Source: Nitrososphaerales archaeon
Lineage (GTDB): Archaea; Thermoproteota; Nitrososphaeria; Conexivisphaerales; UBA164
NCBI GenBank assembly: GCA_023256355.1
Contig: JAGDXJ010000005.1
Location: 1,222-65,221 of the forward strand
Length of the DNA stretch: 64,000 bases
Direction of reading: 5' to 3'
Shown: one piece after another, positions 23,582-33,437 of the stretch
How the letters are laid out: every line of letters starts with the position of its first letter
Position numbering within the stretch: the stretch's first letter is position 1
Made by a program: the position numbers and the translations under genes
The notes under the pieces: generated by a model
Told to the model about the DNA's origin: nothing
Database searches by the model: none
Seen by the model: only the letters and a program-made list of their open reading frames with translations

Positions 23582-23602
23582 CACTGCATAATACTTTCAG
23601 AT

Positions 23603-23676
23603 GGGCCTGTAGCTCAGCCAGGCAGAGCGGCTGGCTCTTAACCAGTAGGTCGAGGGTTCGAATCCCTCCAGGCCCG
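23603..23676 (+). tRNA. tRNA-Lys (anticodon CUU)
   Basis: A 74-nt cloverleaf. Acceptor GGGCCTG/CAGGCCC. D arm GCTC-AGCCAGGCA-GAGC. Anticodon arm GCTGG-CTCTTAA-CCAGT. T arm GAGGG-TTCGAAT-CCCTC. Discriminator G. No encoded CCA and no intron. Confidence 0.9.
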
Positions 23677-23680
23677 GTAG

Positions 23681-31407: not shown

Positions 31408-31770
31408 TTATCTTTTATGAGTGGCACAGCTTACTATCTTATCGTTCGAAAGCGTATAGCATGGTAACCCAAGATCGCTTAATCTCCTTGCGAGTTCAAG
31501 GTCTAATGTAAAGACAGGGTACCTAGTTTTTAAAGCGAGTTTTAAAATATCGTCGTCAGCATTTTTGTTATATTCTTCATAACTTTCGATTGTCAGCAAC
31601 CTGTAGTTTTTGATTATCTTCCTTTTTCTGGAAAGTTTTTCGAGTTCAACTATGACTGATTTCGGTACAGTTATTTCAGGCATTCCTATTTCATCTACTA
31701 TACGATCTAGTACATTACTGGGTTTTTCTAAAAGGTATATTATGAAGCTCGAATCAAATATAACCTTCAT
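31408..31770 (-). CDS. PIN-domain protein
   Basis: 'MKVIFDSSFIIYL' supplies the first PIN acidic residue. The ATG at 31770 abuts the aIF2-gamma stop. From memory, aIF2-gamma followed by a PIN gene is a common archaeal gene order (unverified). Confidence 0.6.
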   Translation of the reverse strand: MKVIFDSSFIIYLLEKPSNVLDRIVDEIGMPEITVPKSVIVELEKLSRKRKIIKNYRLLTIESYEEYNKNADDDILKLALKTRYPVFTLDLELARRLSDLGLPCYTLSNDKIVSCATHKR

Positions 31771-33437
31771 ATTATAATTCCGGAACCTGCAAGGCGCCAC
31801 CTGTCAGCCACTATTCTGCTTAACGCTACCCTGTCACCGCGTAGCGTGACAGCTGGTCTCTTCAGTTTTATCCTCATAATATCCTTTGTCACTTCTTCAA
31901 CAACGCCCAAGTTTGTCATTGTGCCTATGTTTAGCCTCACATTTTCTCCAGGCCTCAGCTTTTCATACCTTACCATTTCCTTCAAGCCTATCACGTATTC
32001 AAATAATTCATATTTTATTACGATTTCATTAACAGGGTCAGGCAAAAATCCTACCTTTGCTACGTAGTTTCCAACCATTATATCGTTTTTGGTAAATATC
32101 GGATCAAGCTTGGTGCCTATGGCTATAAGTCCACCGGGCAGGACCTCATCTACAGGTCCGCTTGAAGTAGACAGGCTAACTACTTCAGTAACTATTGGTT
32201 GATATGAACCTCTTACAGGTATCCCAGGTTTTATTTCTATCTTGTCGCCGATCCTTATTTTTCCCTGTTTAAGTGACCCACCAAGAACCCCTCCTTTGAG
32301 TTCAGAAATTTTAGCACCGGGTTTGTTTATGTCAAAAGATCTCAAAACCTGCATGAGCGCCGGTGCGTTAGGATTTCTGGGTGGAGTTGGTATGTATTCT
32401 TCTATAGCCTGTAAAAGTGCGTCAACGTTCAGCTTTTTCTGCGCTGAAACTGGAATTATTGGTACCTGATTATAGCCAAAAGAACTAAGAAATTCAACGA
32501 TCTTGTTATAGTTGTTCAGCGCCTGCTCATAAGTTACAAGGTCAACCTTGTTCTGAACAACGACAATGTTCTTGATTCCTATCATTTTAAGCGCCTGAAG
32601 GTGTTCTCTGGTCTGTGGCTGCGGCACGGGTTCATTTGCTGCTATTACGAGAAGAGAGCCGTCCATGAGTGCCGCTCCGCTGAGCATGACGGACATCAAG
32701 CTTTCATGCCCCGGTGAATCTATAAAACTTATAACCCGTTTAAGCCTGGGTTCTCCTTTTGGGCAGTTGCCATCCGTGTTAAATTTTTCTGGTTCAGGAA
32801 GCTCGGGGCACTCGTAAATAGCAGCATCAGCATATCCTATTTTGATCGTAATCCCCCTTTTGAGTTCCTCACTGTGCATGCTCGTCCATCTGCCTGTAAT
32901 GGCTTCAACCAGCGTCGTATTATGGGAGATTATACCGTGTGAAGAAATAAAGTTATGGAAAAACGGCACGCTTAAATCGAAAAGATAGCCTTCATAATTT
33001 TTGGGTATGTTTTTTGTGATTTTATCCTGTACAAGCTTGTTTCCTTCATAAACTAATATCGATTCGCCGGGTTTAATCGACTGAGCCTTTTTCCAACCAC
33101 GATCCTTTACAAGCAATTTATGTACAGGTGTAACGGATATGGATCTGCCGGTTTCGGTTTCTATCGATATTATCTTTCCTCTGTACTTCTGAATATAAGC
33201 AAAACCACGGCTTTTTCTCAAATCTTTTCCGGAAAGAGAAACAGAAGACAAAGGAAGCTCAAAAAGCTTTTCATCATAAGCTTTTTTGAAATCATATCCT
33301 ATGATTTCTTTAAATATTTCACGTCCTGTGTAAAAAGTGCCTCCAACATACGCGCTTTCGTCTAAAGTAAGACACTTACCATGATCCACGTGACCTGCTG
33401 TACCTATGTTAACTTCTGGCTGTTTTGGAATTTTCAA
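31767..33437 (-). CDS. eif2g: Translation initiation factor aIF2 gamma subunit, intein-containing precursor
   Basis: G1 'GHVDHGK' is interrupted and resumes as 'TTLVEAITG'. G3 is 'DSPGHE' and G4 is 'QNKVD'. The precursor is 556 aa, leaving 404 aa after removal of the insert. Confidence 0.92.
   Translation of the reverse strand: MKIPKQPEVNIGTAGHVDHGKCLTLDESAYVGGTFYTGREIFKEIIGYDFKKAYDEKLFELPLSSVSLSGKDLRKSRGFAYIQKYRGKIISIETETGRSISVTPVHKLLVKDRGWKKAQSIKPGESILVYEGNKLVQDKITKNIPKNYEGYLFDLSVPFFHNFISSHGIISHNTTLVEAITGRWTSMHSEELKRGITIKIGYADAAIYECPELPEPEKFNTDGNCPKGEPRLKRVISFIDSPGHESLMSVMLSGAALMDGSLLVIAANEPVPQPQTREHLQALKMIGIKNIVVVQNKVDLVTYEQALNNYNKIVEFLSSFGYNQVPIIPVSAQKKLNVDALLQAIEEYIPTPPRNPNAPALMQVLRSFDINKPGAKISELKGGVLGGSLKQGKIRIGDKIEIKPGIPVRGSYQPIVTEVVSLSTSSGPVDEVLPGGLIAIGTKLDPIFTKNDIMVGNYVAKVGFLPDPVNEIVIKYELFEYVIGLKEMVRYEKLRPGENVRLNIGTMTNLGVVEEVTKDIMRIKLKRPAVTLRGDRVALSRIVADRWRLAGSGIII
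32919..33374 (-). mobile_element. Mini-intein (152 aa, no homing-endonuclease domain) in the aIF2-gamma P-loop
   Basis: The host reads GHVDHGK|C...HN|TTL, and excision restores GHVDHGKTTL. Block A is 'CLTLDES'. Block B is 'SVTPVHKLLV' (TxxH). Block F is 'LFDLSVPFFHNFIS'. Block G is 'GIISHN' followed by the +1 Thr. The Cys1 codon is at 33372-33374 and the terminal Asn codon at 32919-32921. Confidence 0.85.

Follow-up and report, generated by a model that had tools for sequence, protein, structure and literature searches.

A mini-intein, very probably capable of splicing, inside the P-loop of translation initiation factor aIF2-gamma from a Nitrososphaeria archaeon

The stretch of 64,000 nucleotides considered here (contig JAGDXJ010000005.1 of assembly GCA_023256355.1 from a Nitrososphaerales archaeon; "the window" in the following denotes this stretch at its full length) carries a gene for the gamma subunit of archaeal translation initiation factor 2 (aIF2-gamma). 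Exactly within the GTP-binding P-loop of the encoded protein, the reading frame contains an insert of 152 codons. This insert is a class-1 mini-intein, and its sequence, predicted fold and conservation make it very probable that it is competent for splicing. The features of the locus are listed below, with positions counted from the first letter of the window; B, F and G denote intein splicing blocks.

31767..33437, minus strand: aIF2-gamma precursor gene, 556 aa, TTG start, stop codon included (open reading frame list, NCBIfam, Pfam)
33375..33437, minus strand: N-extein, residues 1-21 (MKIPKQPEVNIGTAGHVDHGK), with the P-loop Lys at position -1 (translation)
32919..33374, minus strand: class-1 mini-intein, 152 aa, protein residues 22-173, HINT fold, without homing endonuclease (hidden Markov models, PDB, structural model)
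33372..33374, minus strand: Cys1 codon TGT, predicted nucleophile of the N-S acyl shift (sequence and conservation)
33120..33131, minus strand: block B TxxH, T82-P-V-H85 (TPVH) (conservation)
32943..32984, minus strand: block F, L131-S144 (LFDLSVPFFHNFIS), including Asp133 and His140 (conservation)
32919..32924, minus strand: end of block G, His151-Asn152 (CAT-AAT), with Asn152 as the predicted cyclising residue (sequence and conservation)
32922..32924 and 32919..32921, minus strand: codons of His151 and of Asn152 (AAT), respectively (sequence)
31767..32918, minus strand: C-extein, residues 174-556 and stop codon (sequence, alignment with 1KK0)
32916..32918, minus strand: +1 Thr codon ACG, the Walker-A Thr of GK[T] (sequence)

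The intein lies between Lys21 and the Thr of the G1/Walker-A motif, GHVDHGK/TTL (slashes mark junctions). The reading frame runs through the N-terminal junction as MKIPKQPEVNIGTAGHVDHGK/CLTLDES and through the C-terminal junction as GIISHN/TTLVEAITGRWTS, the N-extein ending in ...GTAGHVDHGK and the C-extein starting with TTLVEAITG. Without the intein the mature protein comprises 404 of the 556 residues and the motif GHVDHGKTTL is restored. The original prediction had placed a mini-intein in which no splicing block is missing (Cys1, TPVH, F block, terminal His-Asn and +1 Thr) at 32919-33374. The junction codons confirm these coordinates exactly, on the minus strand, and profile matches, fold and residue conservation agree on the blocks.

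The Pfam profile Intein_splicing (PF14890) matches the 152-aa segment with E = 7e-16 (58.8 bits, cut-off 35.8), while the NCBIfam models TIGR01445 (intein_Nterm) and TIGR01443 (intein_Cterm) score 38.8 bits against a cut-off of 24.5 and 19.8 bits against a cut-off of 15.6, respectively. A phmmer search of the PDB returned the Pho RadA mini-intein with 3.7e-12, in an alignment that spans the F and G blocks (DLxxPxxHNF...HN). An AlphaFold2 model, calculated with 22 family members as input, depicts an almost all-beta single domain with a mean predicted local distance difference test score of 95.5 and a predicted template modelling score of 0.88. The best matches of this model in the PDB, as found by Foldseek, are the inteins of TvoVMA, Pab/Pho CDC21-1, Pho RadA, Mtu RecA and Ssp DnaB (E 1e-11 to 1e-9, template modelling (TM) scores 0.72-0.87, with 0.83-0.87 for the mini-inteins at E ~1e-11), and the top 34 matches are inteins or intein-like domains throughout. 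All features by which a class-1 intein is recognized are present, that is Cys1, TxxH, the block F Asp/His pair, terminal His-Asn, the +1 Thr, the HINT fold and an insert that can be removed in frame. The resemblance is far beyond chance.

As had been predicted, the intein is devoid of a homing endonuclease: neither Pfam nor NCBIfam models gave a LAGLIDADG or HNH match, and the AlphaFold2 model contains no extra domain. With 152 aa in total there is no room for an endonuclease between blocks B and F, so that the element qualifies as a mini-intein. Among inteins of solved structure, its best sequence match and closest superposition (TM 0.87, root-mean-square deviation 2.6 Å) is the Pho RadA mini-intein (PDB 4E2U, 4E2T, 2LQM), which is likewise a mini-intein (about 170 aa in RadA) with Cys1 and a terminal His-Asn. 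Presumably, the RadA element also follows the GK of a Walker-A loop and is succeeded by a +1 Thr. The hosts differ, RadA being a recombinase, and it is for RadA that dependence of splicing on temperature, extein contacts and single-stranded DNA has been established experimentally (PMC4513877, PMC5238726). The top Foldseek matches (E ~1e-11, TM 0.84-0.85) are the mini-inteins of TvoVMA and Pab/Pho CDC21-1 (MCM) (PDB 4O1S, 6RPP, 6RPQ), which share the compact HINT horseshoe without endonuclease but reside in other ATPases and are only 24-27 % identical in sequence.

The host is a bona fide aIF2-gamma. The full open reading frame scores above the cut-offs of both NCBIfam aIF2-gamma equivalogs (NF003077, 548.6 bits versus 315; TIGR03680, 537 bits versus 514.5) and contains the Pfam domains GTP_EFTU, GTP_EFTU_D2 (domain II) and eIF2_C (domain III). 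Solved aIF2-gamma structures match the host protein at 1e-121 to 2e-133. Over residues 5-403, the spliced 404-aa sequence aligns with aIF2-gamma from P. abyssi (1KK0, 2e-133); every residue of GHVDHGKTTL is matched in an unbroken run and the junction is free of gaps, and the earlier claim that deletion of the insert gives a normal 404-aa protein thus holds. The established structure of P-loop NTPases leaves no possibility of nucleotide binding once a domain of 152 aa parts the Walker-A Lys from the Thr. Since the intein parts exactly these two residues, the precursor should be unable to bind GTP/Mg2+, and reliance of the host GTPase on splicing is a sound deduction from P-loop chemistry. A family hidden Markov model and phmmer, applied to the 64-kb window, detected neither a second aIF2-gamma nor a further intein there.

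A side observation concerns the G-domain knuckle of the host (window 32700..32800, minus strand; residues ~57-73 of the spliced protein), which contains only two cysteines (YECPE...GNCPKG). The matching stretch of 1KK0 contains four. In some solved aIF2-gamma proteins this region coordinates zinc via four cysteines, and zinc binding may have been lost in the lineage to which the window belongs.

The insert is by no means peculiar to this genome. Among the best 120 aIF2-gamma homologues from a protein search, 39 carry an insert at exactly GHVDHGK/T. The original prediction had named relatives bearing the same segment without conserved Cys1, His-Asn and +1 Thr as grounds for regarding it as an ordinary insertion domain; all 39 intein-bearing homologues retain these residues. 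In an alignment of 22 diverse aIF2-gamma inteins, 28-91 % identical to that of the window, the columns C1, G76, H85, W94, D133, F142, H151 and N152 are invariant (22/22), and T82, P83, V136, P137, H140 and N141 reach a conservation of 90 % or more. Several members of the family with 201-206 aa (P0018-P0024 and L024) possess an extra segment of ~50 aa between blocks B and F, the usual place of the endonuclease. This segment may be what is left of an endonuclease or DNA-recognition region that has since been lost.

Insight into the descent of the element comes from seven orthologues, the coding DNA of which was taken from independent assemblies (NCBI, JGI, ENA and Logan). The order MFS transporter - aIF2-gamma - PIN_9 - phosphoglucomutase-type (PGM) gene is common to all seven orthologous loci, and the TTG start is kept in the seven orthologues. 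Ratios of non-synonymous to synonymous substitution (dN/dS), calculated according to Nei-Gojobori for unsaturated pairs, are 0.11-0.25 in the intein versus 0.04-0.08 in the extein, that is, the intein is under purifying selection that is about 3-4 times weaker than that on its host. Identity of the intein falls from 96 % to 43 % as that of the extein falls from 99.5 % to 84 %, and neighbour-joining trees of intein and extein have the same branching order within the window's clade. Taken together, dN/dS, parallel divergence and matching trees are what would be expected of a mini-intein that is fixed and passed on vertically. Recent acquisition was also considered on the grounds of base composition (GC content 36 % for the intein, 44 % for the extein and 39.6 % for the window). 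The difference is mild, fits weaker constraint and provides no evidence of transfer.

One relative within this clade is intein-less. P0025, encoded on a Logan SRR29288675 contig (L008, gene 645-1859), has 404 aa, an ATG start and a PIN gene next to it. Its N-terminus, MKIPRQPEINIGTAGHVDHGK/TTL, contains the uninterrupted motif and matches the N-extein of the window. P0025 is sister to the intein-bearing P0017 (88 % extein identity) and nested in the intein-bearing clade, which indicates either precise loss of the intein or a surviving empty allele, in other words an unoccupied homing site. The PIN-domain reading frame of the window itself encodes 130 aa (31408..31800, minus strand) and overlaps the 3' end of the aIF2-gamma gene by 34 nucleotides; in the orthologous loci it corresponds to PIN_9. 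The pairing of aIF2-gamma with PIN is kept in the seven orthologous loci as well as in the intein-less one. The sole RNA gene detected by ARAGORN and Rfam in the 64-kb window is a tRNA-Lys(CTT) at 23602..23677 (plus strand), and these scans of the window revealed nothing that bears on the intein.

How widespread the insertion site is became apparent when GTDB species, each represented by one genome, were scanned for DNA that encodes GHVDHGKC and the matches were sorted by flanks and by BLAST to the extein. The scan yielded at least 119 such loci. Among the matches listed, at least about 39 are aIF2-gamma loci (...NIGxxGHVDHGK/C...HN/T[TS]) and at least 72 are IF2/aIF5B loci (RxPIxxVxGHVDHGK/C...HN/T[TS]LLD). 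The aIF2-gamma carriers among these matches belong to Nitrososphaeria, Nitrososphaerales, Nitrosopumilales, Conexivisphaerales, Bathyarchaeia, Geothermarchaeota, Iainarchaeum and Woesearchaeota, and include one Nanoarchaeota single-cell genome. An Asgard carrier, P0072 from Odinarchaeia with an intein of 390 aa, was found by protein search. Two size classes exist among the aIF2-gamma inteins: mini-inteins span 146-263 aa (for example P0001-P0030 with 146-206 aa and P0056/P0057 with 257-263 aa), and full-length inteins about 390-642 aa. To the latter belong P0091, the 567-aa intein of which contains the Pfam domain LAGLIDADG_3, and inteins of roughly 495-642 aa in Nitrososphaerales, Bathyarchaeia, Woesearchaeota and Iainarchaeum, with alleles of roughly 640 aa in the first two and in Iainarchaeum. 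Exhaustive search of representative proteins revealed further aIF2-gamma proteins with large inteins (P0123, P0128, P0138, P0246) and, furthermore, many relatives of the intein in GxxxxGK/C P-loops of MCM, RadA and SMC-like ATPases. A protein 99 % identical to that of the window is already present at NCBI in assembly GCA_049976285.1 and carries a precomputed Pfam intein match. That the insertion site could be new, as the original prediction suggested, finds no support in view of these occurrences in database homologues and species-representative genomes. The window's intein is one more member of a well-populated class, namely inteins that reside in essential NTPases behind the Walker-A GK.

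The other aIF2-gamma P-loop inteins share with the window's the host, the insertion point GHVDHGK/C...HN/T[TS] and the catalytic residues, and they are mutual best BLAST matches. To judge from these likenesses, the window's intein is part of an aIF2-gamma allelic family. Its members differ in length (146 to about 642 aa) and in the endonuclease, which was lost in the window's intein and kept in some of the others, and outside the window's clade identity drops to about 30 %. IF2/aIF5B inteins, known classically as "IF2" inteins from Thermococcales and Methanocaldococcus and with similar ones in bacterial IF2 of Patescibacteria, interrupt the same motif (GHVDHGK/C...HN/T[TS]LLD) in a paralogous translational GTPase and are likewise class-1 inteins with a +1 Thr. 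NCBIfam NF011418, the model for intein-containing aIF5B, in fact matches the window's intein at 2.6e-9. Their host, however, is the subunit-joining GTPase, whereas that of the window's intein is the tRNA carrier. The two sets form separate groups in a neighbour-joining tree of splicing domains (calculated without bootstrap), and in BLAST each set ranks the other second. An 8-kb segment from Nanoarchaeota archaeon SCGC AAA011-G17 (L090, AQRL01000029.1 8001-16000) encodes both aIF5B and aIF2-gamma, each with a GHVDHGK/C intein; these two inteins are only 26 % identical, and each therefore belongs with the alleles of its own host protein.

A recent transfer of the intein from aIF5B to aIF2-gamma was considered and rejected on the strength of the separate tree groups, the BLAST ranking and the low identity of the two nanoarchaeal inteins. 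Both sets are nonetheless part of the broad assemblage of P-loop inteins, and in Anaeramoeba inteins are described as having passed from the P-loop of one protein to that of an unrelated one (PMC10710043). P0035 and P0044 stand beside an aIF5B intein in the neighbour-joining tree. This appears to be a long-branch artefact, as their best BLAST matches are aIF2-gamma inteins. Bacterial IF2-type genes (RPPVVxVxGHVDHGK/C) in metagenome-assembled genomes of Patescibacteria, Uhrbacteria, Saccharibacteria and Armatimonadota (L015, L042, L066, L067, L120) also carry an apparent intein at the same P-loop position, with ~526-529 aa where the C-terminal junction is clear.

InBase lists IF2 (aIF5B) inteins and is not known to contain an aIF2-gamma allele. 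COG0532 is the group of InfB/aIF5B. Table 2 of Novikova et al., 2016 pairs "IF-2 subunit gamma" with COG0532 and counts 15 inteins (PMC4760082). As far as the table goes, this entry may refer to the classical IF2 intein instead of aIF2-gamma, and its ambiguous labelling could mislead on the host. Full-text literature searches for inteins in aIF2-gamma or eIF2-gamma returned only this table entry and, within the text accessible to them, no paper that unambiguously describes the site. The site thus appears to be poorly described in print, yet sequence databases contain it in abundance and with machine annotation.

Splicing would follow the standard class-1 pathway. Cys1 would form a thioester via an N-S acyl shift assisted by Thr82 and His85 of block B, and the hydroxyl group of the +1 Thr would then attack this thioester, resulting in a branched ester. 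Cyclisation of Asn152, with assistance from His151 and the F-block residues Asp133 and His140, would release the intein, and an O-N shift would finally create a normal peptide bond, thereby remaking GHVDHGKTTL in the 404-aa aIF2-gamma. With respect to origin, the element would be what remains, after loss of the endonuclease, of a homing intein directed at this P-loop codon; a homing past is suggested by the full-length alleles at the same site (P0091 with LAGLIDADG_3; ~495-642 aa) together with the intein-less P0025 nested in the clade. As a selfish remnant it would be kept solely because an essential host protein depends on its self-removal. Splicing is most likely constitutive.

Several points weigh against this interpretation. 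Support for splicing activity is comparative throughout, and sequence alone cannot separate constitutive from conditional splicing. The dN/dS values were obtained by simple counting and from few, closely related pairs, more distant pairs being saturated, and the trees are neighbour-joining trees without bootstrap support. The search for a second host gene covered 64 kb, and an intein-free copy of aIF2-gamma may lie elsewhere in the genome. This last point also bears on the alternative that the insert is a degenerate, non-splicing HINT domain staying in the protein, or that the gene copy is inactivated while another aIF2-gamma does the work. We consider this highly improbable. The catalytic residues are all intact and conserved across the family, dN/dS of the intein is well below 1, and a domain of 152 aa inside Walker A would be incompatible with nucleotide binding. 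Strong purifying selection on the extein, with dN/dS as given above, shows that the gene is no pseudogene; the window contains no second aIF2-gamma, and of the intein-free homologues in the databases the nearest shows no more than 75 % extein identity and belongs to a different sample. That an intein fragment was joined into aIF2-gamma by chimeric assembly or binning is hardly conceivable. The window does look metagenome-derived, since its nearest relatives are all metagenome-assembled genomes, but the in-frame architecture and its neighbourhood recur in at least seven independent assemblies from NCBI, JGI, ENA and Logan, and the same architecture is found in dozens of other genomes.

Unlikely as well, though less so, is the idea that the intein has been co-opted as a conditional switch by which temperature, redox state or a ligand (GTP, tRNA, aIF2 alpha/beta) sets the level of active aIF2-gamma and with it translation initiation. 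A precedent is provided by the P-loop intein of Pho RadA, the best match of solved structure, which is controlled by temperature, extein contacts and single-stranded DNA (PMC4513877, PMC5790916, PMC5238726). In addition, the mini-intein has been retained under purifying selection across a clade in which exteins have diverged to about 72 % identity, and Novikova et al. regard the retention of inteins in P-loops as a hint of function (PMC4760082). Any intein in an essential gene should, however, be under purifying selection, as a cell that fails to splice it would die. Non-synonymous sites change about 3-4 times faster in the intein than in the extein, and the intein-less P0025, nested in the intein-bearing clade, implies that the element is dispensable in that lineage. 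Nor is there an obvious disulfide trap: the intein has a single cysteine and the N-extein none, meaning that neither offers a second cysteine for a disulfide with Cys1, and the two remaining cysteines of the precursor reside in the C-extein knuckle. Gating by redox or temperature sensitivity of Cys1, as raised in the original prediction, is speculation, and nothing in the sequence points to it. Constitutive splicing of a selfish remnant remains our preferred reading.

For annotation, these findings imply that the gene product is better described as a precursor that contains an intein and matures to 404 aa. With 152 aa, a single cysteine and a +1 Thr, the mini-intein is a compact candidate for tests of conditional splicing or for use as a protein-engineering part. 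The invasion of GHVDHGK/T in the paralogues aIF2-gamma and IF2/aIF5B, apparently independent, offers material for studying shared versus separate homing sites, and aIF2-gamma emerges as a protein in which inteins recur, among TACK, DPANN and Asgard archaea alike. By analogy with Pho RadA it is conceivable, if improbable, that the intein acts as a post-translational valve on initiation that answers to temperature, GTP or aIF2 alpha/beta assembly. Should this apply, the supply of the sole GTPase delivering initiator tRNA would hinge on the conditions for splicing.

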